Origin: Verrucomicrobiota bacterium
GTDB lineage: Bacteria; Verrucomicrobiota; Verrucomicrobiia; Opitutales; Opitutaceae
NCBI GenBank assembly: GCA_023410155.1
Contig: JAEYQF010000374.1
Coordinates: 1 to 54,965 of the forward strand
DNA: 54,965 nucleotides
Direction of reading: 5' to 3'
Below the pieces are notes generated by a model that saw only the letters and a list, made by a program, of their open reading frames with translations, did not search any database and had not been told where the DNA came from. The translations under genes and the position numbers were made by a program. How positions within the stretch are numbered: position 1 is the first letter of the stretch; each line of letters starts with the position of its first letter. Shown here piece by piece: positions 59 through 52,913 of this stretch.

Positions 59-91
59 ATCGCGCCGAGAGGTGGCACGACTCGGGACGAA
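59..91 (+). repeat. Short degenerate copy (3 units) of the 11-bp-period intergenic repeat family
   Basis: atcgcgccgag|aggtggcacga|ctcgggacgaa aligns with gtcgcgccgag|atgcggcacga|ctcgagccatc in the 2597-2728 array. Confidence 0.5.
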
Positions 92-2596: not shown

Positions 2597-2728
2597 GTCG
2601 CGCGCGACTCGCGCCAATGTTCGTCCCGAGTCGCGCCACGTTGCGGACATGGTCGCGCCACGATGCGTCCTGCGTCGCGCCGAGATGCGGCACGACTCGA
2701 GCCATCGATCGGCTCGAATCGTGCCGTG
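2597..2728 (+). repeat. Intergenic tandem array of about 12 degenerate 11-bp units (alternating A/B, 22-bp period)
   Basis: gttcgtcccga|gtcgcgccacg|ttgcggacatg|gtcgcgccacg|atgcgtcctgc|gtcgcgccgag|atgcggcacga|ctcgagccatc. Confidence 0.85.
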
Positions 2729-2736
2729 CGCACATT

Positions 2737-3573
2737 TCACTTGGCGAAATCGGTGGAGACCGAGAGTTCGCGATGGGCGGCGAGAGCTTGGCGCATCGTT
2801 TCCACCCGCTGCTCCGCGAGCCCGAGCGCGTCGCTACCAAGCACGAGGTGCAGCGGAGGCGTGGGCATCGTGGCGACGTTCATCAGCACATCGGCGAGTT
2901 TTTCCGGATCGCCGGGTTGGTGGCCGCTGATTCCGCCGGACACGTGTTGTTCGACGAGATCGTGCGCGGACTGGTAGTCAGCGATGGGCGTGGCGGGCAC
3001 GGCTGGTGAGCCCGCGGCGAGAAACTCGGTGCGGAAATAGCCGGGATAAACGCAGGTGACATTCACGCCCAGGCCGGCGAGGTCGCCGTGCAAGCCCTCG
3101 CTCAGGCCCGCGACCGCGAACTTCGTGGCGCAATACACGCCGAAGCCGGGAAACGCCGCGGTGATGCCGGCGATGGACGCGATGTTGAAGATGTGTCCGG
3201 CGCGCTGCTGGCGCAGGTGCGGCAGCGTGGCGCGCAAGACGTTGAGCAGGCCGAAGACGTTCACGTCGAAGTTGGCACGCGCTTCGGCGTCGCTCACTTC
3301 CTCGACCGCGCCGAACTGGCCGTAGCCGGCGTTGTTCACGACGACATCCAGGCCGCCGAAGTGTGCGATCGTCTGCTGCACGGCCGCGCGCACGCTGGCC
3401 TCGCTATTCAGGTCGACTTCGAGCGGGAGGACGTTGGCGCCGAGTTTTGCGACGAGGGCGCTCTTGGAGCGCGAGGTCACGGCGACCTTGGCGCCGGCGT
3501 GGGCGAGCTTTTGGGCGAGACGGAGGCCGAGGCCCTTGGAGCCGCCCGTGATGAACCAGATGCTGTCCTTGAT
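2737..3573 (-). CDS. SDR family oxidoreductase (no canonical start codon upstream of the Rossmann motif)
   Basis: WFITGGSKGLG, NNAGYG, YCATK, PGDPEK; the frame extends past the ORF-track GTG (3480) to an ATC at 3573. Confidence 0.9.
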   Translation of the reverse strand: MKDSIWFITGGSKGLGLRLAQKLAHAGAKVAVTSRSKSALVAKLGANVLPLEVDLNSEASVRAAVQQTIAHFGGLDVVVNNAGYGQFGAVEEVSDAEARANFDVNVFGLLNVLRATLPHLRQQRAGHIFNIASIAGITAAFPGFGVYCATKFAVAGLSEGLHGDLAGLGVNVTCVYPGYFRTEFLAAGSPAVPATPIADYQSAHDLVEQHVSGGISGHQPGDPEKLADVLMNVATMPTPPLHLVLGSDALGLAEQRVETMRQALAAHRELSVSTDFAK

Positions 3574-18677: not shown

Positions 18678-19268
18678 ATGCAGATTCACCGCGCCGAATT
18701 CAAAACCAGTGCTCCCGACCTCCGCTCCGCTCCCGCGTGGGCGCTGCCTGAATTTGCGCTGATCGGGCGCTCCAATGTCGGCAAGTCCTCGCTCGTCAAT
18801 CTGCTCACCGGGCGCCGCGATCTCGCGAAAGTCTCGGAGGTGCCGGGCAAGACGCAGCTCCTTAATTTTTTCACGATCGATAACCGCTGGTCGCTCGTCG
18901 ATCTGCCCGGCTACGGTTACGCGCAGGTGAGCCGGCAGAAGCGTTTCGAGTTCAACCAGGCGGTCGCCGACTACATCATTCAGCGCGAAAACCTGCGCCT
19001 CGTATTCGTGTTGATCGACTCGCGCCTCCCGCCGCAGGCGATCGATCTCGAGTTCCTGCAATGGATCCGCGAGGCGGGCGTGCCCTTCGCGCTCGTGTTC
19101 ACCAAGACCGACAAGCAGTCGGCATCGCAAACACGCACGAACGTGGACACGTTCAAACGCACGCTCACCGAACAGGGCTTCGCGGTGCCGGATGTGTTGC
19201 TCACGTCGTCCACCAAGAAAGCTGGCCGCGGCGAAGTGCTGAACTTCATCGCGGCGCAGCTCGCGTGA
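18678..19268 (+). CDS. yihA: Ribosome biogenesis GTPase YihA/EngB
   Basis: GRSNVGKSS, PGKT, DLPGYGYA, LIDSR, TKTDK. Confidence 0.95.
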   Translation: MQIHRAEFKTSAPDLRSAPAWALPEFALIGRSNVGKSSLVNLLTGRRDLAKVSEVPGKTQLLNFFTIDNRWSLVDLPGYGYAQVSRQKRFEFNQAVADYIIQRENLRLVFVLIDSRLPPQAIDLEFLQWIREAGVPFALVFTKTDKQSASQTRTNVDTFKRTLTEQGFAVPDVLLTSSTKKAGRGEVLNFIAAQLA

Positions 19269-19466
19269 GTCGCGCCTGAGTGCGTCCCGAGTCGGGACAA
19301 GGTCCGCACCGGGTCGTGCCAAGGTGCGGACAAGGTCGAGCGAAGGTCCGGACACGGTCGCGACAAGGTGCGCACTATGTCGCGACAAGGTGCGGCTCGG
19401 GTTGCGAGGAGATGCGCACCGCGTCGAGCCCGGGTGCGGATCGAGTCGAGACGTGGGACGGATTGC
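19269..19466 (+). repeat. Intergenic tandem array of about 18 degenerate 11-bp units
   Basis: gtcgggacaag|gtccgcaccgg|gtcgtgccaag|gtgcggacaag|gtcgagcgaag|gtccggacacg|gtcgcgacaag|gtgcgcactat|gtcgcgacaag|gtgcggctcgg...; fills the gap between convergent genes. Confidence 0.92.
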
Positions 19467-19472
19467 GTGGGT

Positions 19473-20543
19473 CTAGAACACGAGGTGACGTGCGAGAAAC
19501 GGGAGCACGCGCGCGTCGAAGCGGCCGTGCTCGCGCCAATTCTCGTGCCAGTAGACTCCGCGGTATTCCTCCGCTTCGTGTTCCACGCCGAGAAGATCGA
19601 GTTTTCGCGACAACGCCGCGCTGCCGTAAACGTGATCCTGGACCGGATCGTAGCGGGCCCAATCGAGCGCCACCGCGCGCAGGCGGCGCAGGTTGTCCGC
19701 GTAGTGGTCGGCGATCTCGACGATTGCGAAGCCGGCCACGAGTTTACGCGCGTTCTCCGGGTGATACACGAGCTGCCCGTCGCGTTTATCCATGAGAAAA
19801 TCGCAGTAGAACGGGGGGCGATTGGGATTGGGCAAAAATGCCTGACTCATCGTCACGAAGATTTGGGAAATGTGCTCGCCTCCGAGATCGGCGAAGGATT
19901 TCGCCGCGTGAATCTTTTCCCAATTGGGATACCATTGCACGGGCAAGAGCCCTGTGCCGGTGCGGACCGGATTGAGCGCATACGCGACGCTGAAGACATC
20001 CGGGTGGCGCATCGCAATCAGCAGCGCGCCGCCGCCGCCCATCATCTCGCCGACGAGGGCGCGACTCTCGGCGCCGCGCAGGGTGCGATAGGTGCGATCG
20101 ATGAACGGCACGAGTTCCTCGACGGTGTGGTCCAGCCAGCGACCGGTGGCGGGAGAGTTTTCGTAGAGGCTCCCGGTGCTCGGCGAACTGTAGTCGCCGA
20201 TGACAACGATGAACTCGGCCGTTTTCCCCGCCGCGAAGCCGCGTTGGAGGAGGCGGAGGATTTTCCCGTCGGCGAGCATCTGCTCGGGCGACTGGAAGAT
20301 GCTGTGGCAAAGATAGACGACGGGGCAGGACTTGCCTGAACTCGCGTAGCTCGGCGGCAGAATGACTTTGATCTGACGCACCGGATCGAGGTCGGTGCGC
20401 GTGTCCCGCAGCACGGTCGAGGTGAGCGAGTGAGAGACGACGGCAAGTGCGGGAGCATCCGCGGCGCGGGCGGCAACGGGACCTGCCAGGCAGAGAATGG
20501 CAAACCAGCAGAGAAACGGGACGCGAAGTAGAGTGGTGTTCAT
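19473..20543 (-). CDS. Secreted putative-esterase-fold protein lacking the nucleophile Ser (paralogue 1)
   Basis: VILPPSY, PVVYLCH, ELVPFIDRTYRT, RALVGEMMGG, HPDVFSVAYA; signal peptide. Confidence 0.85.
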   Translation of the reverse strand: MNTTLLRVPFLCWFAILCLAGPVAARAADAPALAVVSHSLTSTVLRDTRTDLDPVRQIKVILPPSYASSGKSCPVVYLCHSIFQSPEQMLADGKILRLLQRGFAAGKTAEFIVVIGDYSSPSTGSLYENSPATGRWLDHTVEELVPFIDRTYRTLRGAESRALVGEMMGGGGALLIAMRHPDVFSVAYALNPVRTGTGLLPVQWYPNWEKIHAAKSFADLGGEHISQIFVTMSQAFLPNPNRPPFYCDFLMDKRDGQLVYHPENARKLVAGFAIVEIADHYADNLRRLRAVALDWARYDPVQDHVYGSAALSRKLDLLGVEHEAEEYRGVYWHENWREHGRFDARVLPFLARHLVF

Positions 20544-26594: not shown

Positions 26595-26719
26595 GTCCCG
26601 AACCTACCGTTGTTCAGCTCCGAGCCATCGCCCCCATCAGCACCGCGCCCGGCAAAAAGTCATACATTATATGACGATACCGTTTTTGCGAGCGGGCTTG
26701 GGATGAGGGCGGTGCGGCA

Positions 26720-26776
26720 ATCACGCGGTGATCACGCCGGCGATTACGCGGCGATCACGCGGTGATCACGCCGGTG
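26720..26776. repeat. Short tandem repeat duplicating the OPT gene 3' end
   Basis: atcacgcggtgatcacgccgg at 26720 and again at 26754 (the second overlaps the stop codon), with attacgcggcg between. Confidence 0.75.
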
Positions 26777-28575
26777 ACGATCAGCGCGGCGATGAGGATG
26801 CCCATGAGGCTTTCGCCGGCAATCAAACCCGAGGCAACGGGGACGACGGTTTTTTCGGCGAGCGACGGGGACTTGCGGCGCATCCATTCCGCGGCGGCGG
26901 CGCCGATGAACATCGCGATGCCGTTCGAGCCGGGAATCACCATCGCGATGCCGAAGCCCGCGGGCGAGGGTAGCAGCGGCTTCAGTTTCTTCGGCGCGAA
27001 TTTTTCCGCGAGCGCGAGCGCCACGCCGAGCGCGAAGCCGATGAGGACCGCGCTCTTTGCGGAGCCGGGCAGCGCGGCGAGTCCCTGCGAAAAAGCCTGC
27101 GACACACCAGCCCAGACGACGCACGACGGAGCGGGCCACGCTTCGGTGCCGAGCGCACTCGGATCGGGGATGATGAGGTTGAACGCCGGCACGATGATCG
27201 CCGCGCCGATGGCGACGCCGAAGAGCTGCGCATAAAATTGGTGACGCGGTTTCGCCCCGAGGAGCCAGCCCGTCTTCAATGTCGTGAGCAGATCCGCGGC
27301 GTGCAATCCGACACCGCCCGTGACATTGGCCGACATGATGTTGCCACTCAGGTTTCCGGGCGTGATCACCCCGTAAATCACCTGCGTGACCGGGCCGAGC
27401 GCCTTTGTCGGTGTGACGTCGGTTTCGCCCGTCACGCGCGCGGCGACAAACCCCATCGCCACCGCGAGCGGGATCGCGACGAGTCCGGCCCACGCGGGAA
27501 TTTGAAACAGCACGACCATCAACCACACCACGAGCGGCGACAGCACCACGAAACCCAGCGGGAACCACCACTCGGGACACTCGATCCGCGCGAGTTCGTT
27601 GTCGCCCTCGGCGGCGCGCGGATTTCGCGAAAAGATGCGCGTGAGTCCACCAAACGAACGCGCGATGCTCTGATAATCCAACGCAAACGAGGTGAGCCCT
27701 GACGCGACGAGGATCGCGGCACCCGGCCAGAGTGTCCACGCGACGATCGTCTTGTAGCTCACGCTTGCGATTTCGCCCTGGGCGAGCAGCGCGGGTGCGA
27801 GCACGCCATACGTGAGCAGTCCGCCGAGCAGCATCGACCAGCCGGTGCGAAAACTCATGAGCGCACCGCCGCCGATCAGCACGACCTCGGCTTTAAGCGC
27901 GAGCGTCCACTCGGCGAGTGCGCGACCCGCGAGCGTGAAGGGAATCGCGATCGTCGTCGGAATGATGTGCCACGCGTCGCGCAGCAATGTGATCACCGCG
28001 GCAAACGCGCCCGAGCCGGCGAGCCACAGCGCCTTGCTTTTGCCTGCGCCCGCGGCGGCTTCGTGGATCGAGGCGATTGTTTCGGCCGTCGCGGTGCCGG
28101 TGGGAAACGACAGGCCCTCTTTATTGATCAGCTGTCGTTTGATCGGAATCGCCGCGAAGACGCCGAGCGCCGCGATGAGCGCATACCACACAATGAGTGA
28201 GAACGTGTCGGGTCGCACCGTGGTGATCATGAGCAATGCGCCGAGTGCGGCCATGTTGCCGCCGCCGGTCATGTAGCCCGCGCCGGAGGCGACCGTGGTG
28301 AGCGCGTTGTTCTCCAGCGCGCCGAGCGGCTTCTCCACGAGCCGCAGCGCCTGGAGCAGTTGAAACGAGCCGAACGCGAGAATGCACGCGGTCAACGTGA
28401 CGCCCATGCTCCAACCCGTCTTGAAAAACACGTAGAGGTTCGAGAGACACATCGCGATGCCGATGAGCATGCCGATGAGGACCGCGCGCACGGTGAGATT
28501 GGGCGCGTGCGGCTGGTAGGTTTTGGCGAGCCATTCGGCTTCGCGATCGAGGAGCGGGGACGGCAATGAACTCAT
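26755..28575 (-). CDS. OPT family oligopeptide transporter
   Basis: LTVRAVLIG, NLYVFFKTG, LENN, FPTGTATA, GETDVTP, LKTGWLLGA, ASGLIAGESL; many TM helices. Confidence 0.93.
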   Translation of the reverse strand: MSSLPSPLLDREAEWLAKTYQPHAPNLTVRAVLIGMLIGIAMCLSNLYVFFKTGWSMGVTLTACILAFGSFQLLQALRLVEKPLGALENNALTTVASGAGYMTGGGNMAALGALLMITTVRPDTFSLIVWYALIAALGVFAAIPIKRQLINKEGLSFPTGTATAETIASIHEAAAGAGKSKALWLAGSGAFAAVITLLRDAWHIIPTTIAIPFTLAGRALAEWTLALKAEVVLIGGGALMSFRTGWSMLLGGLLTYGVLAPALLAQGEIASVSYKTIVAWTLWPGAAILVASGLTSFALDYQSIARSFGGLTRIFSRNPRAAEGDNELARIECPEWWFPLGFVVLSPLVVWLMVVLFQIPAWAGLVAIPLAVAMGFVAARVTGETDVTPTKALGPVTQVIYGVITPGNLSGNIMSANVTGGVGLHAADLLTTLKTGWLLGAKPRHQFYAQLFGVAIGAAIIVPAFNLIIPDPSALGTEAWPAPSCVVWAGVSQAFSQGLAALPGSAKSAVLIGFALGVALALAEKFAPKKLKPLLPSPAGFGIAMVIPGSNGIAMFIGAAAAEWMRRKSPSLAEKTVVPVASGLIAGESLMGILIAALIVTGVITA

Positions 28576-28613: not shown

Positions 28614-28723
28614 GTCGGGCCAAGTCTCGAAACGCGTCGGACCAAAGTGCGGACTGGGTCGGGACACGTCGCGGCTCGAGTCGGGCCACGTTGCGGATCG
28701 GGTCGAGCCATGGTGCGGCGCGA
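28614..28723 (+). repeat. Intergenic tandem array of about 10 degenerate 11-bp units
   Basis: gtcgggccaag|tctcgaaacgc|gtcggaccaaa|gtgcggactgg|gtcgggacacg|tcgcggctcga|gtcgggccacg|ttgcggatcgg|gtcgagccatg|gtgcggcgcga. Confidence 0.85.
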
Positions 28724-28900: not shown

Positions 28901-30907
28901 ATGCGTTCTCCATTCACAGCGGCTCTCGCGGCCGCGCTTTGTTTCGCCGGTGTGGCTCAGGCCAGCATCGATCCGAAGAACTTCGATCCCGTCGTGCGGC
29001 AGCACGAGGACTTCGACGAGTTTGCCAACGGCGGTTGGAAGAAGAGCAATCCCATCCCGGCGGCTTACAGCCGGTGGAGCGCGTTTCACGAAGTGAACGA
29101 GTTCAATCAGAAAGCGCTGCACGCGATCCTCGAGCAGGCGGCGGCGGGTCAGCAGTCGGGCGCGATCGGCCAGCTCGTGGGCGATTTCTACGCGAGCGGC
29201 ATGGATGAGACCGCGGTGGAGCGCGCGGGGCTCGATCCGTTGCAACCGGAGTTGGCGAAGATCGCGGCGCTGAAGGATCGCGCGGAGCTGCCGGCGTTGC
29301 TGGCGCGGTTTCATCTGCTGGAGATCGCGGCGGGCTTCGAGGTCTACGCGGAGCAGGATCCGAAGGACACCGACACCGTTATCGCGGCGGTGAGCCAGGC
29401 GGGACTTGGGTTGCCGGACCGCGATTACTATCTGCGCGAAGACGCGAAGTCGGAAGAGTTGCGTCAGGCGTATGTGTCGCATGTGGCGCGCACGCTCGAA
29501 CTCGCAGGCGACGAACCGGCCACGGCGCAGGAGCGGGCGGCTGCGATCATGAAACTCGAGACCGCGCTCGCGCGCGGCTCCCGCACGAATGTCGAACTGC
29601 GCGATCCGGTCGCCAACTACAACAAGCTGCCGCTCGCAGACGTGCAGGCGCTGACGCCGCATTTCGCGTGGGAGCGCTATTTCGCGGCGCTCGGCATCGC
29701 GGGGCCTGACGTCGTCGATGTGATGCAGCCTGACTTTCTGAAAGCGTTCGATGCGGAGATCGCCAGTGTCTCGCTCGGGGACTGGCAGTCGTATTTGCGC
29801 TGGCATCTGCTCAGCAGCGCGTCGCCGTATCTCGGCGCGAAGTTCGTGGACGAGCATTTTGCGTTTTACGGCAAGACGCTGACCGGGGCAGAGGCGCTGC
29901 TCGACCGTTGGAAGCGCGTGCTCGAGACCGTGGACGACGCTGTAGGCGAGGCGCTCGGCCAGCTCTATGTGAAGGAGCATTTCCCGCCGGCGTCGAAGCA
30001 GCGGATGCTGGAGCTCGTGGAGAATCTGCGCGCGGCGCTGCGCGAGCGTCTAAACACGCTCGAGTGGATGGACGACGCGACGCGCGAGAAGGCGCTGGCG
30101 AAGCTGAACGGCTTCCGCGTGAAGATTGGTTATCCCGACAAGTGGATCGACTACAGCGCGCTGCAGGTGGAGAGGGATTCGTATGTCGGAAACGTTCTCC
30201 GCGCGCGGGAGTTCAACACGCGCCGTGAGCTCGGCGAGATCGGCCACCCCGTCGATCGCACGAAGTGGGAAATGACACCGCCGACGGTGAACGCCTACTA
30301 CCACCCGACGATGAACGAGATCGTGTTTCCCGCGGGCATCCTGCAGCCGCCGTTCTTCGACGCGGATGCGGACGACGCCGTGAACTACGGTGGCATCGGC
30401 GCCGTGATCGGTCACGAAATGACGCACGGTTTCGACGACACGGGCCGCCAGTATGCGGCGGACGGCAGCCTCACCGACTGGTGGAGCGCGGAGAGCGCGG
30501 AACGTTTCGCCGAACGCGCGAAGGCGATCGTGGAGCAGTTCAATGGATACGTGGCGATCGACGACCTGCACGTGAACGGCGAGCTGACGCAGGGCGAAAA
30601 CATCGCGGATCTCGGCGGCTTGAAGATCGCGTATGCGGCGCTGCAGAAGGCGCTCGCGGGCACGCCGCAGACGCCGATCGACGGCTTCACGCCGGAGCAA
30701 CGCTTCTTCCTGAGCTGGGCGACGGTGTGGCGCATGAACATCCGCGATCAGCAACTGAGGTTGCAGGTAAACACCGACCCGCACTCGCCGGCGAAATTCC
30801 GCGTGAACGGCCCGCTCTCGAATCTCGAGGAGTTCCATCGCGCGTTTGAGATCCCCGACCCGTCTCCGATGCGCCGCTCTGCCAGCGAGCGCGTGGAGAT
30901 CTGGTAA
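28901..30907 (+). CDS. M13 family metallopeptidase (PepO/neprilysin-like)
   Basis: VNAYY, PAGILQPPFF, GHEMTHGFDD, GENIADLGG, DPHSP..RVNG; signal peptide. Confidence 0.95.
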   Translation: MRSPFTAALAAALCFAGVAQASIDPKNFDPVVRQHEDFDEFANGGWKKSNPIPAAYSRWSAFHEVNEFNQKALHAILEQAAAGQQSGAIGQLVGDFYASGMDETAVERAGLDPLQPELAKIAALKDRAELPALLARFHLLEIAAGFEVYAEQDPKDTDTVIAAVSQAGLGLPDRDYYLREDAKSEELRQAYVSHVARTLELAGDEPATAQERAAAIMKLETALARGSRTNVELRDPVANYNKLPLADVQALTPHFAWERYFAALGIAGPDVVDVMQPDFLKAFDAEIASVSLGDWQSYLRWHLLSSASPYLGAKFVDEHFAFYGKTLTGAEALLDRWKRVLETVDDAVGEALGQLYVKEHFPPASKQRMLELVENLRAALRERLNTLEWMDDATREKALAKLNGFRVKIGYPDKWIDYSALQVERDSYVGNVLRAREFNTRRELGEIGHPVDRTKWEMTPPTVNAYYHPTMNEIVFPAGILQPPFFDADADDAVNYGGIGAVIGHEMTHGFDDTGRQYAADGSLTDWWSAESAERFAERAKAIVEQFNGYVAIDDLHVNGELTQGENIADLGGLKIAYAALQKALAGTPQTPIDGFTPEQRFFLSWATVWRMNIRDQQLRLQVNTDPHSPAKFRVNGPLSNLEEFHRAFEIPDPSPMRRSASERVEIW

Positions 30908-37187: not shown

Positions 37188-37417
37188 GGGTTAGGCCGGC
37201 AGACACGGAACACGCGCCGGCGTGCGAGCGGCAAGTGCGATTGCGCGGAGGTCCACGTGGCACCATCTCGTCCAAGCGTGCCCGGTTAGGCCGATCAGGG
37301 GACCTAATTCCAGTTGGAGCCGGGCTGTAAAATGGGCGCGCGGACCTCTCCGGGGTTTTGCTGATTGCTGCCCTGATCCAAGGAGCCGAGGCTGTGCGCT
37401 CCCTCTTCGACTGCCCC

Positions 37418-40400
37418 ATGCGTATCCCTGCTGTAACCGCAGCCTGCGTCGCAATCGCGCTGCTCTTCACCCGAGCTGCCACCCTTTCCGCTCAAACACT
37501 CCCGGAAGGCACGATGTGGATAGGCACGGAAGCCGGTTGGGCGTTCCAGTCTACGTTCCGTCCCATCATGAGCGGCGTGGCGGACGTTGCCGAAGGGAAT
37601 TATCACTTGCTGGTGCTCAAGACCGACGGGACGTTGTGCATCACTGGAAAAAACGGTCAGATGGAGCTTGGGCAGCCAGGCGTGAAATCGCTCGAGAGTC
37701 TAACGCAGATCGCCTCGGGGGTGAAAGCGATTGCGGCGTCCGATTACGGCAGCTACTTCGTGAAAGACGACGGCACGCTTTGGGTCGCGGGCACAAACAT
37801 CCCTGTTGAGGTCGATCCAGGCCTCCCGGCAATCGCCCCTGAGTTTGTTCAGATCGCAGAGAACGTGGAAGAGGTGAGCGCGGGGCATGGGTTCGTCTTG
37901 GTCCGGAAGACCGACAACACCGTGTGGGGAACCGGGGCAGCATATTCGGGGCAGTTGGGAAAAGGTTCGGGCGATTCCCCGTCGGGGTTTATTCAGATCG
38001 AAGAGGGAGCCAAGGCGATCGCCACTGGTTTCGGTCATACTCTGGTGCTGAAGCAGGACGGAAGTCTCTGGGGTGCTGGATCCAACGAGTTCGGCCAGCT
38101 GGGTTTGGAGGATTCCTCGAATTTCATGAGCTTCGCGCAGATCGCCACGGAAGTGAAGGCGATGGCTGCTGGCCCGCACCATACGGCGTTTGTGAAGAAT
38201 GATGGCACACTCTGGACCTGTGGAGCGAACAGCGAGGGGCAGATTGGAGATGGCACCCTCGATGATCGGAGGACGCCTCATCCCGCTGCCTCGGACGTCG
38301 TCTCCGTGGGCGCAGGTCCTGGCGCAATCTGGTTTATCAAATCGGATGCGACCCTCTGGGCGACGGGCGGACAGGATTTTCAGGGTAATGGCGCCGGGTC
38401 GGCTGGTCATAAGTCGCCCGTGCAGATTGCGACCGGAGCGAAAATCGCGCGGCCGGTGGGCGGCACGAAGTTCTACCTCGACACCGACGATGTCTTGTGG
38501 GGCGCCGGGTATCCCGTGGCGGGTGAACTCGGCGACCGTGGGCTGACGCCTGAGTTCGGGCACGCATTGGATTCGGTCTCCCTCGTGGCCACGAATGGGT
38601 TCGATAGTTGGGTCGTTAAGCCTGACGGCACTCTCTGGTCGGGCGCTCTCCCGACCCTGGCACAGGTGCCTGGCGTCACGGACGTGAAGGAGATCGCGGC
38701 AGGGGCCAGTTCCAGCTCGGCCTACTACCTCAAGACCGATCACACCCTCTGGCGAATCGCCCGCGGCGAAAAGGCGAAGAAAATCGATGCTGACGTGAGA
38801 GTGATTTCAGCGGGAAGCAACTATGTCGCTTATATCAAGAGCGACGACACTCTCTGGGGCTGGCAGGAATTCTATAGCATTGGCGTCGATTTCGGTCCCA
38901 CGAACACGCCCGTTAAAGTGGCGGCAGGGGTGCGCTCCGTTTCCGCGGCAGCCTGGCATATGCTTTACGTAAAGAACGATAATACGCTGTGGGGCATGGG
39001 CTACCCGTGGCTGGGCTTCACGAACGCTCCGGCGTGGGGCTCTCCGTATCGTTCAAATCCGGTTGAGCTTCTGACGGGCATCAAGGCGGCGGCAGCACAC
39101 TCTGAGCGCAACGCCTACATCTCGACCGACGGTTCGCTCTGGGTCTTGGGAGCCGGATTCTCCGACAGCGCTGGGCCGGCCGTCAGGATGGACACCGGAG
39201 TGTCGACTGTAGCTGTTACTGACAGAGATGTTTTCTACAAAAAGGCCGACGACCTCCTCTACCGCAACCGGACGGTGTTGCACCCTGGCGTGCAGAGCTT
39301 CACCGCCACTGGATGGCCGCTTGCCCTCATTCAGCGCGCACAAGGTCTTGTGGCCCCCACGGCAGCTTCGCCGGCTCGGACGGTGAAAACGGCTGTGGGC
39401 GCTTCGCTGATCCTGGATGCAGCGTTCTCGGGCTCCGCTCCGATCTCCTTCCGATGGGAAAAAGATGAGGAGCCGGTCGACTCCGTGGAGCGGGTCGCGT
39501 CCGATCGTCTCACCGCAAGGTTGACCGTGCCATATGTGCAAGAGACCAGCACGGGAAGTTATCGGGCCATCGGCCGTAACACGGCCGGCGAGGCGGTCAG
39601 CGAGGCGGTCGCGATCGCACTCGTCCCGGGACTGTCCGTCAGCTCTATCCCCGACCAAGTCATCGAACTCGGCGCGGCCACTGAGTGGCTGCCGTTCCAG
39701 CTCTCCAACGGCGGATCCGAATCGGCGATCGTGTTGAGCGCTGAGAGCTCGAATCCCGATGTCATACCTGTGGAGAACATCTCCTTTGCCGGGGCCGGCG
39801 CCGCTCGATCCGTGCGCGTGCAAGCGACTGACGCACGCGGCGGAGTCGCAGTCATTTCTGTCTTGATCACCGACGGCGGCGAAACGGCGGTGACCCAATT
39901 TGTTGTCGGTGTAAATGGCCCCCCCTCGATCTCCTCGATCGCGGACCAGACCATCAACGAGGACGAAAACAGCCTGTCTGAGATCACGGTCTCCGATGAC
40001 CTCACGGCCGACCGCGATCTCCTCATCACCGCGTCCAGTTCCAATACCACGCTTGTCAGTGCCAACTCCGTCAAGATCACGGGCACGGGTTCCACGCGCA
40101 ACGTGCAGGTGTCACCCGTGCGGGACCAATCCGGCTCGGCCGTCATCACCCTCACGCTATCGGACGGCGCTTCATCGGTCACGACGAGCTTCACACTTAC
40201 TGTCGTTTCCGTGCCCGATGCTCCGCGGATTGAGGCTATAGCCTCCCGCACCGTCGAAGAGGACTCGCCGGTGCAGACGTTCTCCGTCGTGGTCGAAGAC
40301 CCGGACTCTCCGCGGTCGAATCTCACCTATCAGGTCTCCCACACCAACTCTGCTTTGGTGAACTCGTCCAAGCTCGTGCTTACGCCGACCGCTTCCGGTT

Positions 40401-42640
40401 TCACGCTGCTCGCCACGCCCGAGCCGAATCGATTCGGAGAATCGACCATCACCGTCACCGCCTCGGATGGTGTGCTCACCTCCTCTCGCTCGTTCACCTT
40501 GGCCGTGGTGGAGGTCAACGACCTGCCAGCGATCTCCCACATCGCCGATCAACGCTTCGATGAAGACAAGGCGTCGGCGACAATTCCGTTTACCATCGAC
40601 GACGTGGAGACTGCGGCTGGGAACCTGATCGTCACCGCGCACTCGTCGAACACTGGACTGATCCCGAAGGCCAACATCACGCTCGGTGGCACAGGCGCCA
40701 ACCGCACCGTGAAGGTCAAATCGGTGCCGAACGAATGGGGCTCTACCCGCATTAGAATCACAGTCAGCGACGGCACCGACGAATCCATGCAGGATTTCTG
40801 GGTGAGGGTGGAACCGGTGAACGATGCGCCCAAGATGAGTGCCATCGCCGATCAGGCGATTAACGAGGACACGTCGACGAAGACGCTACCCTTCACCGTG
40901 GAAGATATCGATACGAGCCTCTCGGAACTGAAATTCTATAAGAGTTCCTCGCACATGGACCTGATCCCATTGGGAAATATCGTGCTCGGTGGAAGTGGGG
41001 TTAATAGGACCGTGAAGATCACGCCACTGAAGGATCGCTACGGCACTTCAACCATCGTGCTCCGTGTTTACGACGGCCACCAGTCGTTCGTCGAAAGCTT
41101 CGTCGTCACGGTCAAACCCGTGAACGACGCACCCACGGTGACCGCCATCGCTGATCAGACGATCAACGAAGACACGTCGACCAAGACGCTTCCTTTCACG
41201 GTGGCCGATATCGATACGAGCGTCTCGAAGGTGAAGATCAGCAAGAGTTCTTCTGACCCGAACCTGATTCCGGTGGACAACATCGTGATCGGTGGAAGCG
41301 GGGCCAGCCGCACGGTCAAAGTCACACCCGCGAAGAATCGCTCCGGCACCTCTACCATCGTGCTGAAGGTGGATGATGGCAGCCTTTCGTCGACCGAGAC
41401 GTTCAAGGTCACGGTCAAACCCGTGAACGACGCACCGACGGTGACCGCCATCGCTGATCAGACGATCAACGAAGACACGTCGACCAAGACGCTTTCTTTC
41501 AAGATCGACGATATCGATACGAGCGTCTCAAAGCTGAAAATTAGCAAGAGTTCTTCTGACCCGAACCTGATTCCGGTGGACAACATCGTGCTCGGCGGCA
41601 GTGGCGCCAAACGCACGGTCAAGGTCACACCCGCGAAGAATCGCCACGGCACCGCCACCATCGCGCTGAAAGTGGATGATGGCAGTCACTCGTCGACCGA
41701 GACGTTCAAAGTCATCGTCAAGCCAGTGAACGACGCGCCTACGATCAGTAAGATCGCCGCTCAGACCGTCGCGCGAAACCGCAGCAGCGCAGCGCTGGCG
41801 TTTACGGTCGGTGATGCCGAGACCGCCGCCTCGTCGCTCAAGGTGACCAGAAGCTCATCGGACACCAAGCTGTTGCCCCTCTCCGGGATCGTCTTGGGCG
41901 GAACCGGAGCCAAGCGCACCGTCAAGCTCACACCTGCCAAGAATCGCACCGGCACCGCCACCGTGACGCTTTCCGTAAGCGACGGAAAGCTGAAGACGAA
42001 GATGGCGTTCAAGGTCAAAGTCAGTTCCTCCGCCAAATCGCTCGAGGAAGGCCCAACAATCACGGCGGATTTGGCAGATCAGGTTGTGCTCACTGGCCAG
42101 ACCCTGCGTCTCGAGGTCACGTCCGATGATCCGGCGGCCCGAGTGAGATGGTTCCGTGACGACGAAGAACTGCGAGGTGCCACCACCCGCGAACTCGTGC
42201 TGCCCAAGATCAAGCTCATCGACGCTGGTGGATACCGTGCGCTCCTCACCAACGCCAAAGGCCAGAGCACCAGCCGCACGGCGGAGGTCGTCGTTGTCGC
42301 GGTCGATGCGCAGAGCGTCGACGTCGGTTCCGGACGGCGCCTGACCGGCGCGGTTCGAGTCGCCGGCGCAGCGGACAAATTGCGCCTCAGCCTCCTTCTT
42401 CCGGCGGATTGGCGTTATGTCGACGGGGTGGCTGCCGGTGCGCAACTTCTCCCGCAGCGAGGCGATGTCGGATTGATCGAGTGGCAATGGCGGGAGGCCG
42501 CCCTTGAGCATCCGGCACGCTTCACGGCCACGTTGGCGCGCACGAACAGCGCCTCACCATGGACCGACGTGGCGGGCGTCCTCGAAATCCGGGTCAACTC
42601 CAGCACGGTCCGTCTGCCGGTTGAGCGTTTGCTGGAGTAG
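37418..42640 (+). CDS. Large surface protein: RCC1/BLIP-II-like repeats + Ig-like and cadherin-like (tandem-95) repeats
   Basis: HTLVLKQDGSLWGAGSNEFGQLG repeats; VNDAPTVTAIADQTINED repeats; signal peptide. Confidence 0.92.
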   Translation: MRIPAVTAACVAIALLFTRAATLSAQTLPEGTMWIGTEAGWAFQSTFRPIMSGVADVAEGNYHLLVLKTDGTLCITGKNGQMELGQPGVKSLESLTQIASGVKAIAASDYGSYFVKDDGTLWVAGTNIPVEVDPGLPAIAPEFVQIAENVEEVSAGHGFVLVRKTDNTVWGTGAAYSGQLGKGSGDSPSGFIQIEEGAKAIATGFGHTLVLKQDGSLWGAGSNEFGQLGLEDSSNFMSFAQIATEVKAMAAGPHHTAFVKNDGTLWTCGANSEGQIGDGTLDDRRTPHPAASDVVSVGAGPGAIWFIKSDATLWATGGQDFQGNGAGSAGHKSPVQIATGAKIARPVGGTKFYLDTDDVLWGAGYPVAGELGDRGLTPEFGHALDSVSLVATNGFDSWVVKPDGTLWSGALPTLAQVPGVTDVKEIAAGASSSSAYYLKTDHTLWRIARGEKAKKIDADVRVISAGSNYVAYIKSDDTLWGWQEFYSIGVDFGPTNTPVKVAAGVRSVSAAAWHMLYVKNDNTLWGMGYPWLGFTNAPAWGSPYRSNPVELLTGIKAAAAHSERNAYISTDGSLWVLGAGFSDSAGPAVRMDTGVSTVAVTDRDVFYKKADDLLYRNRTVLHPGVQSFTATGWPLALIQRAQGLVAPTAASPARTVKTAVGASLILDAAFSGSAPISFRWEKDEEPVDSVERVASDRLTARLTVPYVQETSTGSYRAIGRNTAGEAVSEAVAIALVPGLSVSSIPDQVIELGAATEWLPFQLSNGGSESAIVLSAESSNPDVIPVENISFAGAGAARSVRVQATDARGGVAVISVLITDGGETAVTQFVVGVNGPPSISSIADQTINEDENSLSEITVSDDLTADRDLLITASSSNTTLVSANSVKITGTGSTRNVQVSPVRDQSGSAVITLTLSDGASSVTTSFTLTVVSVPDAPRIEAIASRTVEEDSPVQTFSVVVEDPDSPRSNLTYQVSHTNSALVNSSKLVLTPTASGFTLLATPEPNRFGESTITVTASDGVLTSSRSFTLAVVEVNDLPAISHIADQRFDEDKASATIPFTIDDVETAAGNLIVTAHSSNTGLIPKANITLGGTGANRTVKVKSVPNEWGSTRIRITVSDGTDESMQDFWVRVEPVNDAPKMSAIADQAINEDTSTKTLPFTVEDIDTSLSELKFYKSSSHMDLIPLGNIVLGGSGVNRTVKITPLKDRYGTSTIVLRVYDGHQSFVESFVVTVKPVNDAPTVTAIADQTINEDTSTKTLPFTVADIDTSVSKVKISKSSSDPNLIPVDNIVIGGSGASRTVKVTPAKNRSGTSTIVLKVDDGSLSSTETFKVTVKPVNDAPTVTAIADQTINEDTSTKTLSFKIDDIDTSVSKLKISKSSSDPNLIPVDNIVLGGSGAKRTVKVTPAKNRHGTATIALKVDDGSHSSTETFKVIVKPVNDAPTISKIAAQTVARNRSSAALAFTVGDAETAASSLKVTRSSSDTKLLPLSGIVLGGTGAKRTVKLTPAKNRTGTATVTLSVSDGKLKTKMAFKVKVSSSAKSLEEGPTITADLADQVVLTGQTLRLEVTSDDPAARVRWFRDDEELRGATTRELVLPKIKLIDAGGYRALLTNAKGQSTSRTAEVVVVAVDAQSVDVGSGRRLTGAVRVAGAADKLRLSLLLPADWRYVDGVAAGAQLLPQRGDVGLIEWQWREAALEHPARFTATLARTNSASPWTDVAGVLEIRVNSSTVRLPVERLLE
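41108..41713 (+). repeat. Near-identical 303-bp intragenic tandem duplication (101-aa Ig-like units)
   Basis: acggtcaaacccgtgaacgacgcacc.acggtgaccgccatcgctgatcagacgatcaacgaagacacg at 41108 and 41411. Confidence 0.9.
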
Positions 42641-47754: not shown

Positions 47755-48900
47755 ATGGCGACTCCCCCCGCACAGGCCGGATCGCGCGCCCGGCGATCGA
47801 GTTTGTTCCCGTTTGCTGACGGACGCCCTTTCGTAAGAATTTTACTTTGGGTCGTAGTGGTCGTGGCGTTGTTGCTTCTCCTGGTGCGCTTCGTCGGGTC
47901 GCCCATTGCCACGGCGGTCGCCAACCGGAAGCTCGCCGAGCTGCCTGGCTATCAAGGCGAGGTGGATGCCGTGACCCTTTCCCTCTGGCGGGGCACGGGC
48001 AGCATCGAGAATCTCGTCCTTCGCGAGCACGATCACCGGGAGAACGATCCGCCCCTGCTGCACGTGAGGCATGCCCAATTTCACTGGGCTCCGGATTCGA
48101 TCTTCCGCGGCAAGCTCGGAGGCCGCATCGATGTCGTCGGCCTCGAGCTGACGATCGTGAAGCAGGAACGCGTCGACGATGTCGGCCAGGCGGCTGCAGA
48201 GGTGGAGGAGAAGGCCGGCGCGGTGGCCGAGAAACTCGATGCCTGGCAGAGCGTGCTCGCCGAGGCGTTTCCGATGGAGCTCGCCAGTCTCGAAGTGAAG
48301 GAGTCGCGTGTCCGTTTTCTGGATACGAGCTATGATCCGCGCGTCGATGTGGCGCTCGACGATCTCACGGTGCACGCCACCGGGCTCAAGAACCGGCGTG
48401 ACGGGCAGGAACTGCCAGCGCACGTCGTGCTCACGGGTGTCACGACCGGTGGCGGCCGGTTGCGCGCGGAGGTTCGGGCCGATCCCGTGGCCGAGCTGCC
48501 GCGTTTCGACACCCAGTTCGAGCTGAAGCAGCTCTCCCTTCCCGCGTGCAACGCCCTTCTGAAAGCCTATGCCGATGCCGACGTCTCGCGCGGAGAGTTC
48601 GAGATCTTCATCGAAGCGACCGCGCGGGAGGGGCGCTACGAAGGTTACGCCAAACCTTTTTTCAAGGACCTCGATTTCTCCAATCCTTCCGACGACGATA
48701 AGAATATCGCCGAGAAGGCGAAGGAAGCCGTCGTCTCCGCCGTGGCGAATGTGCTCGAGAGCAACGATGACGACAAGGTGGCTACGAAGGCGCCGTTCTC
48801 GGGAAACTTCGAGAACAACGACGTCGATATCTGGACCACCGTCAGCACCCTCATGCGCAACGCCTTCATCGAAGCACTTCGCGAAGGCTTCGAAGGTTAG
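47755..48900 (+). CDS. DUF748 domain (AsmA-like) protein
   Basis: N-terminal TM anchor, [51 protein letters not shown]. Confidence 0.8.
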
Positions 48901-48936: not shown

Positions 48937-49090
48937 GTCGAGCCAGTGTCCGGCGCGGGTCATGCCACGTTGCGTCCCGCGTCGCGCCTGGGTGCGCTCC
49001 GGCTCGCTCCGGGATCCGGGCCGGGTCGCGCCATGGGGCGGGCGGCGTCGGGAAGGGACGCGAACCCACTCGGGACCGAGCGCGGCTCGG
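48937..49090 (+). repeat. Intergenic tandem array of about 14 degenerate 11-bp units
   Basis: gtcgagccagt|gtccggcgcgg|gtcatgccacg|ttgcgtcccgc|gtcgcgcctgg|gtgcgctccgg|ctcgctccggg|atccgggccgg|gtcgcgccatg... Confidence 0.8.
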
Positions 49091-49148: not shown

Positions 49149-50690
<1,542 letters not shown>

Positions 50691-52821: not shown

Positions 52822-52913
52822 TTCGTTCTCTTTATCGTTCTCGTTCTCTTTCTCTCCTCAGCCTGGGAGAACGCGAAAGAGAACGAAGAACGAGAACGAA
52901 GAACGAGAACGAA
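52822..52913. repeat. Purine/pyrimidine-skewed palindromic element ([TCGTTC]n ... [GAACGA]n)
   Basis: ttcgttctctttatcgttctcgttctctttctctcc / ggagaacgcgaaagagaacgaagaacgagaacgaa inverted arms within the his operon. Confidence 0.85.

Follow-up and report, generated by a model that had tools for sequence, protein, structure and literature searches.

What are the short tandem arrays that recur between genes in this DNA, and what keeps them there? The window, by which we mean the whole stretch of 54,965 nucleotides that was analysed, corresponds to contig C265 in a draft genome of 3.64 Mb, split into 418 contigs and with a G+C content of 64% (the genome under study, G000), and it was compared with a sister species of the Opitutus genus (G001; same genus, 4 contigs, ~4.0 Mb). 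A preliminary description, made from the letters of the window, had reported four intergenic arrays with a strict 11-bp period, all lying on the + strand, and had offered as explanations a polymerising DNA-binding platform, a replichore-oriented signal, or a structured RNA or mobile repeat. We find that these arrays belong to a genome-wide family with a unit of exactly 22 bp, in which purifying selection preserves the register and the core letters while the variable letters drift neutrally. The reading we prefer, with a probability of roughly 0.45, is that the arrays may be phased tracks of double-stranded DNA, placed where transcription units end, to which a putative protein binds.

All four arrays are present where they had been placed (Table 1). 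Tandem Repeats Finder (TRF) returned period 22 in each of them (2622-2689, 19291-19394, 28648-28718 and 48971-49037; array 2 with 4.7 copies and 0% indels), and a 22-bp weight matrix found in-phase + strand units in array 1 (5 units, 2608-2717), array 2 (7 units, 19269-19444), array 3 (4 units, 28636-28723) and array 4 (5 units, 48937-49090). Autocorrelation above that of shuffled sequence, the check named beforehand, was seen at lag 22, where the arrays reached 0.58-0.67 against ~0.3 in 1000 shuffles (z 6.9-11.9; 8.6, 11.9, 8.4 and 6.9 for arrays 1 to 4), with values of 0.20-0.30 at lags 21 and 23. Since the signal at lag 22 is strong and that at lag 11 is significant only in array 2 (z 5.2, against 0.4-2.0 in the others), we take the period to be 22 bp, composed of two unlike 11-bp halves; the 11 bp first described as the period survives as the spacing of the A and B half-units, and the alternation of A and B in the preliminary description already pointed to this. 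The junction GCCACGTTGCG, said to recur in three arrays, did occur three times (at 2635, 28685 and 48964) against 0.15 expected, a number reached in 0 of 100 shuffles. The supposed three-unit remnant near the contig end proved marginal, with z 2.6 at lag 22 and a single weak matrix match, on the - strand, at 82-103. By our own calls of open reading frames (ORFs), the flanks of arrays 1 to 4 are tandem, convergent, divergent and tandem, which bears out the varied gene arrangement described earlier, and, because the units are contiguous and the sole "spacers" are 3 bp long, the arrays are not CRISPR.

The genome-wide profile scan that had been proposed for this genome and its relatives placed the window arrays in a large family. 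The weight matrix, built on 628 near-consensus sites (iteration drifted, and the first matrix was used), matched G000 2107 times at threshold 8 and 1139 times at threshold 14, compared with 448 and 38 matches in a Markov shuffle. Chaining of these sites gave 353 arrays with at least 2 units, which add up to 33.4 kb or 0.92% of the genome and have a median length of 88 bp and a maximum of 264 bp, and the family was also found in G001. Whole-genome TRF of G000 returned 862 rows, 261 of them with period 22, 39 with period 44 and 50 with period 11. The consensus of the unit is GTCGnGmC-nnn-GTsCGsAC-cgn, in which box A (GTCGnGmC) and box B (GTsCGsAC) are 8-bp near-palindromes (GTSSSSAC), each with a 3-bp spacer after it, so that box centres are 11 bp apart. 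Because both boxes are near-palindromic, an array reads nearly alike on either strand, and reverse-strand matches fall at the fixed offsets of 8 bp (223 cases) and 14 bp (199 cases). The letters T2, C3, G4, G6, C8, T13, C15 and G16 have frequencies of 0.84-0.98 in both species.

Register within the family is strict. Successive same-strand sites were 22 bp apart 996 times, 44 bp apart 102 times and 66 bp apart 15 times, whereas spacings of 21, 23, 43 and 45 bp were seen 0, 1, 0 and 2 times, and past one unit too degenerate to score, the next unit was in register in ~50 of 51 instances. Register was perfect in 342 of the 353 arrays. Units run head-to-tail on one strand, with none of the alternating (inverted) clustering of REP/BIME elements, and the arrays fade at their ends into degenerate units, where no conserved leader, tail or inverted terminus was found, in agreement with the earlier remark that terminal inverted repeats are absent.

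Evidence that the core letters are under selection comes from comparison with the sister species. Four-fold degenerate sites diverge by 0.349 between G000 and G001 (5411 sites in 28 window genes), with 0.725 at A or T and 0.298 at G or C. Forty-two G001 arrays had flanks that mapped to one G000 contig, and at the corresponding G000 site 34 of these had at least 2 units, 3 had one and 5 had none, at least 2 of the last being projection errors on alignment. In simulations of neutral decay, only 3.7 of the 42 remained recognisable at a uniform rate (maximum 10 in 200 runs), and 0.9 with base-specific rates (maximum 4 in 300 runs). Since the common ancestor of the two species, the arrays have kept their loci. 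Divergence of individual positions was then compared, over the 34 aligned orthologous arrays, with the expectation from the base-specific neutral model. The core positions diverged 2.3- to 4.4-fold more slowly than neutral (observed against expected: T2, 0.161 and 0.69; C3, 0.072 and 0.32; G4, 0.133 and 0.31; C8, 0.132 and 0.32; T13, 0.262 and 0.69; C15, 0.168 and 0.32; G16, 0.112 and 0.31), whereas the variable positions diverged at the neutral rate (position 5, 0.477 and 0.46; 9, 0.511 and 0.60; 10, 0.543 and 0.54; 11, 0.438 and 0.47; 17, 0.361 and 0.36; 22, 0.456 and 0.46). Divergence of whole arrays ranged from 0.05 to 0.44. The ortholog of array 2 has the same length in G001, with 11 differences within the array and no indel (divergence of 0.051 over the 176-bp scored core), and that of array 3 is in register and differs at variable letters. 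This per-position contrast speaks for repeats of this kind as sites that function in a sequence-specific way, and against their being junk, and it points an experimenter to the bases worth mutating and to a probe for the binding factor.

What might read these letters? With two near-palindromic 8-bp boxes one helical turn apart and indifference to strand, a protein that binds double-stranded DNA is the simplest agent. Among the explanations first offered, the polymerising DNA-binding platform is accordingly the best supported, by the phase, the boxes, the selection on the core, the strand indifference and the lack of selection for RNA pairing. The arrays arose in the ancestor of G000 and G001, at least some of them by insertion, and lodged mainly directly downstream of genes. 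In the mechanism we propose, the selected property would be the recognition of double-stranded DNA by a putative sequence-specific protein, probably two-fold symmetric, which would contact every box from the same side of the helix and extend cooperatively from box to box. Where transcription units end, most of all in the gaps of convergent genes, the coated track could then serve as a roadblock, an insulator or a topological barrier, a role that is speculation suggested by location. A bolder version, in which a clade-specific, genome-wide system uses a dedicated polymerising protein to coat hundreds of tracks that mark transcription-unit ends as insulators, roadblocks or supercoil barriers, we regard as doubtful; if true, it would provide the first defined function for the constant-size 20-23 nt tandem repeats of bacteria. 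For such questions this lineage is a clean test case, as it offers one shared consensus, hundreds of loci, and a sister species with orthologous arrays.

Table 1. Arrays of the 22-bp family in the window and the genes at array 2.
Feature	Positions	Strand	Description
Possible remnant	59..91		1.5 units near contig end; marginal
Array 1	2597..2728	+	~6 units of 22 bp; flanked by two - strand ORFs, directly downstream of the stop of ORF 2737-3480
ORF flanking array 2	18678..19268	+	TGA stop directly adjoins first unit of array 2
Array 2	19269..19466	+	9 units; occupies the entire stop-to-stop gap of convergent ORFs 18678-19268 (+) and 19473-20414 (-)
ORF flanking array 2	19473..20414	-	Convergent; stop 6 bp past array 2
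Array 3	28614..28723	+	5 units; in the divergent gap of ORF 26755-28566 (-) and ORF 28952-30907 (+)
Array 4	48937..49090	+	7 units, partly degenerate; follows the stop of ORF 47857-48900 (+) and precedes the conserved region upstream of guaA-like ORF 49149-50690 (+)

The location that suggests such a role was determined from genes called with our own crude codon-usage score, which yielded 3130 ORFs covering 87% of the genome, with exact stops and approximate starts. Of the 353 arrays, 297 overlap gene calls by less than 10% and were counted as non-coding. Among gaps of at least 40 bp, an array was present in 114 of 286 convergent gaps (40%), in 70 of 548 (13%) and 75 of 615 (12%) tandem gaps on the + and - strands, respectively, and in 24 of 412 divergent gaps (6%), so that 40% of the arrays fell in convergent, 51% in tandem and 8.5% in divergent gaps. 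The distance from an array to the stop codon facing it had a median of 30 bp, with a quarter within 8 bp, compared with a median of 111 bp to a facing start. Genes followed by an array scored slightly higher on a codon-bias proxy (0.348 vs 0.316, p 3e-9) and had a top-decile share of 11.5% against 9.8% for the others, a measure that is confounded by spurious ORFs.

Several observations weigh against the protein-binding track. The binding protein was not found, no systematic search for one having been made, and conservation of the core equally fits an RNA-binding protein and also fits a sequence-specific enzyme that maintains the repeat. Both array-bearing genomes are metagenome assemblies, and the gene calls rest on the crude caller described above. 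Alignment inside a repeat is ambiguous and may pair non-orthologous units; 12 of the 34 ortholog pairs were free of gaps, and in these divergence was 0.15 in the core, 0.41 at variable positions and 0.21 in the flanks. The arrays were also ascertained by the motif itself, although the core-variable bias that this produced in simulation was only ~0.03-0.05. Some "arrays" within ORFs are native coding sequence, and part of the 29 coding array calls is therefore false or ambiguous. The arrays are not visibly replacing terminators, since hairpins resembling intrinsic terminators within 200 nt of the stop were equally frequent with arrays (78 of 347) and without them (441 of 2136). Finally, neighbouring arrays more than 1 kb apart in G000 had the same orientation 69 times and opposite orientations 42 times (p 0.013), a weak local tendency that was not seen among the G001 sites listed.

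The alternative that survives best, while still unlikely, is that the arrays are a repeat that is selfish or maintains itself and serves no cellular function. Ancestral insertion or copying would have spread them, ectopic gene conversion or a putative enzyme would rewrite them towards the motif, and their location after genes would reflect only where insertions are tolerated, a pattern like that of the REPs of E. coli. The distribution of the family is what such a repeat might show. A degenerate 30-bp pattern spanning A-B-A matched G000 125 times and G001 three times as often (376), and had 0 matches in the other 39 relatives, including 14 of the genus, and in 0 of 400 further genomes sampled across the phylum; a reversed-pattern control gave 0 matches. 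Within the genus the family is found in 2 of 16 genomes, and TRF detected no period-22 array in 119 kb of array-less Opitutus congeners. Among the matches listed from the species collection, single matches at 13 loci of unrelated high-G+C genomes were rejected as chance, with no array at any of them. The two genomes are 91% identical over a 752-bp guaA fragment, compared with 77-84% for other congeners, and form a clade with 100/100 support in the tree of this fragment. From its presence in this clade only, the family is a shared derived character of the two species. Their genomes measure 3.6 Mb (G000, 96% complete) and 4.0 Mb (G001, 93%), and those of congeners at least 90% complete 4.4-6.7 Mb.

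Insertion, on which this alternative relies, can be seen at two loci. Empty sites in relatives, which the preliminary description had suggested looking for, were found upstream of guaA, where G001 shares array 4 and four array-less congeners (G007, G003, G009 and G002) have none: homology with them resumes exactly at the end of the array, and in G007 the conserved region before guaA lies only ~16 bp from the preceding stop codon, compared with ~190-200 bp of array in G000 and G001. The second locus is one of four in-ORF arrays examined (C152, C291, C258 and C328). In a penicillin-acylase-like ORF (C152:17183-19666), a stretch of ~30 residues in a linker directly before the conserved PGSN motif is translated array, inserted in frame; it is common to G000 and G001, and G002, G003 and G009 are without it. 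At least some arrays thus arose by insertion, the family itself having arisen in the common ancestor of G000 and G001. Of the remaining in-ORF arrays, those in C291 and C258 were rejected as insertions, being colinear with congeners, and the gene containing that in C328 was found in G001 only among the genomes compared. The array-like stretch in the conserved ORF of C291 (G000:C291:8666-8731) encodes the peptide LGPDPVRTLSRLEPHLG, and congeners have at this locus a different peptide of nearly equal length with the same GPD start, either a chance resemblance or an overwritten segment. Also in favour of a selfish repeat are differences in array length, which varies between the species (7 of ~60 alignment gaps are exactly 22 bp, and some changes are multiples of 22 bp), and in the share of the units with box subtype GTCGAGCC, which is 9.7% in G000 and 22.6% in G001.

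Against a selfish repeat stands, in the first place, the poor showing of genes that might mobilise it. RAYT or Y1 transposases (PF01797) gave 0 matches in G000, which is 96% complete, and one weak match in G001 (27.9 bits), whereas 12 of 14 array-less congeners have 1-10 matches, and no reverse transcriptase was found in G000 or G001. A master gene flanked by arrays was considered and rejected, as array pairs 0.2-3.5 kb apart enclose ordinary housekeeping genes. In the closed genome of one congener (G005) there are 32 matches to the reverse transcriptase family PF00078, many with identical scores, which look like a proliferating retroelement, perhaps a group II intron. The lack of conserved or inverted termini at the array ends also speaks against mobility.

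The units themselves argue in the same direction. No master copy is apparent, because 1403 of 1444 units are distinct, no 22-mer being found more than three times. Unit identity in G000 was 63.2% between adjacent units and 62.0% between units of different arrays (48.5% and 47.2% at variable positions), only 0.5% of adjacent pairs had at most one mismatch, and in G001 the corresponding adjacent and between-array values were 0.640 and 0.638. Neighbouring units are thus no more alike than units of other loci, which led us to reject a variable number tandem repeat (VNTR) or minisatellite grown by local slippage. Identity of units within G000 (0.616) and within G001 (0.638) was about that between the two genomes (0.620), from which it follows that units are not homogenised within a genome. 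Furthermore, divergence at the variable positions is exactly neutral, which fits descent of orthologous arrays under selection on the core better than repeated overwriting. A major letter at unit positions 5, 7, 9-11, 18 and 22, all of them variable, is A, and T2 and T13 are among the most conserved. An adenine-specific origin of unit diversity, of the kind seen in diversity-generating retroelements, was rejected, there being no reverse transcriptase and the base-specific neutral model accounting for the fast A positions.

Less probable again is an element acting in RNA, in the manner of a REP hairpin in the 3' untranslated region. It would be transcribed along with the gene before it and would act as a terminator, as a barrier to exonucleases or as the target of an RNA-binding protein. 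The preference for 3' ends is in favour of this element, as are the arrays that adjoin stop codons (on the stop side, the distance is 0-10 bp in 78 of 373 cases, with the median of 30 bp given above) and a high absolute folding energy, and small RNAs are raised as an option for the 20-23 nt repeats in the text of PMC8161180. The folding energy of real arrays (-0.470 kcal/mol per nt) was, however, no better than that of unit-shuffled (-0.473) or column-independent (-0.470) controls and only slightly better than that of mononucleotide shuffles (-0.422), so that the selected stem-loop characteristic of REP/BIME elements was not seen. Relative to tandem genes, 77 arrays had the same and 68 the opposite orientation, that is, both orientations are equally frequent with respect to the upstream gene. 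This absence of bias, together with the absence of excess folding, argues against a function as structured RNA; nor is it expected for Rho, as one strand is G-rich and would be a poor loading site. When a terminator and an array occurred together, the terminator preceded the array in 44 cases, followed it in 26 and lay within it in 8, and because of the first group many arrays would lie beyond the transcript. Rfam gave no match in the window at gathering scores, nor around array 2 at E up to 1. A protein that binds single-stranded RNA may be compatible with the folding and orientation results. From the structured RNA or mobile repeat of the preliminary description there remains, then, insertion into one gene; excess folding, conserved ends and a master copy are missing, and no RAYT or reverse transcriptase was found in G000.

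It is highly improbable that the arrays are DNA uptake sequences for the preferential uptake of a cell's own DNA, as in Neisseria or Pasteurellaceae. As would suit such sequences, which are short motifs over-represented throughout a genome, the motif is lineage-specific, highly over-represented, present in both orientations and frequent after genes, and box B with its spacer may resemble the Haemophilus uptake core. Uptake sequences, however, are dispersed, one copy or one inverted pair at a time, and often lie within genes; they do not form tandem arrays of two alternating boxes locked in register, whereas here 297 of 353 arrays are non-coding and a 22-bp register is conserved.

The co-orientation on the + strand that had been described holds for the four window arrays, all of which score on that strand, and is not a property of the family. 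In G001, orientations alternate along the 1.1- and 2.7-Mb contigs, with 18 sites forward and 18 reverse (C1, +++-+--++-+---+--; C3, -+++---++--+-++-+), and are mixed in the first 620 kb of contig C1 too. A replichore-oriented signal of the Chi or KOPS type, to which the four + strand arrays and the 69 to 42 excess of co-oriented neighbours in G000 might have pointed, is refuted by this continual alternation, which excludes polarity on the scale of a replichore.

Having weighed these alternatives, we retain the protein-binding track as the best account of the arrays. Whatever their function, the repeats are also a practical issue, since the family makes up ~1% of the genome and arrays are where the metagenome contigs of relatives break off; four DNA runs contained contigs of ~90%-identical relatives, none of which extended across array 2.

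Three other repeats in the window were noted. At 26714-26777, a local 11-bp tandem repeat, ATCACGCGGTG, present in ~5 copies, straddles the stop of ORF 26755-28566 (-) and the adjoining convergent gap; with only 9 genomic occurrences of its 11-mer, it does not belong to the 22-bp family. The 1760-aa ORF 37358-42640 contains, at 40812-41743, 3.1 copies of a 303-bp unit (82% matches), presumably a repeated protein domain. Between two + strand ORFs, at 52823-52913, runs of (TCGTTC)n and (GAGAACGA)n are mutually reverse complementary and make an inverted repeat with arms of ~35 bp, possibly a long hairpin.

How does the family compare with known systems? Like REP/BIME elements, it is extragenic, numbers hundreds of copies and is biased towards 3' ends and convergent gaps, which here carry arrays in 114 of 286 cases against 24 of 412 for divergent gaps. 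According to a preprint, ~60% of the REPs of E. coli are convergent, 40% are tandem and 1% are divergent, and REPs occupy 207 of 704 convergent gaps (~30%; bioRxiv 10.64898/2026.03.23.713779). REP/BIME elements are, however, 20-40 nt imperfect-palindrome hairpins in alternating orientation that are mobilised by RAYTs, whereas the present family consists of direct repeats, head-to-tail in strict register, with no excess folding and no RAYT in G000. In the helical register of its 11- and 22-bp direct repeats it resembles iterons and centromere-like arrays. The iterons of R6K and RK2, parC of R1 and pSK41, and the 11-bp operators of OmpR/PhoB-family regulators are 11- or 22-bp direct repeats that present one face of the helix for cooperative protein binding; each of them occupies one site, in a plasmid or a promoter, adjacent to the gene that encodes its binding protein. 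The arrays described here differ in occupying hundreds of chromosomal loci after genes, among housekeeping genes and with no linked gene found, and array 2 had no similarity in the plasmid or phage collections.

Dispersed families of tandem repeats have precedents in the MIRUs of mycobacteria, which are oriented with operons, and the heptameric STRRs of cyanobacteria. Head-to-tail clusters of SMAG elements are described in Stenotrophomonas (PMC2613905). With all three the present family shares the occurrence of one unit as tandem arrays at many intergenic loci, and from all three it differs in the unit, which in these is 40-100 bp, 7 bp or palindromic. Arrays of the VNTR type, unlike those here, where neighbours are no more alike than random units, consist of near-identical neighbouring copies.

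The closest likeness is to the non-coding tandem repeats of constant size that Subirana and Messeguer describe in bacteria, 20-21 nt long in Bacillus and 20-23 nt in many groups, which are specific to a species or to close sister species and have a short motif in all repeats (PMC8161180). The length of those repeats corresponds to two helical turns, and a polymerising protein or small RNAs are proposed for them in the same text; a 2019 survey by the same authors counts dispersed families of non-coding satellites as rare (PMC6749651). Our searches for repeat families of Opitutus or Verrucomicrobia yielded nothing relevant; the supplementary tables of PMC8161180 and PMC6749651 may list 22-nt families of other phyla. 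The earlier statement that no named family matches can thus be kept for the name, the class having none, and has to be given up for the class, which is already described in the text of PMC8161180. All the testable features of that class are present here, namely non-coding arrays at many loci (353) with a fixed length of about two helical turns (22 bp), restriction to close species (G000 and G001) and a short sequence conserved in all units, and we therefore place the family in this known and unexplained class, of which it is a new member. It differs from the repeats of Bacillus in its unit of 22 bp instead of 20-21, and from the repeats in the text of Subirana and Messeguer in having one consensus across 353 arrays, where several families of equal length are described there, and in its host, a Verrucomicrobiota lineage. 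To the description of the class in that text, the present family adds purifying selection resolved by position, a bias towards the 3' ends of genes, and insertion into a gene.

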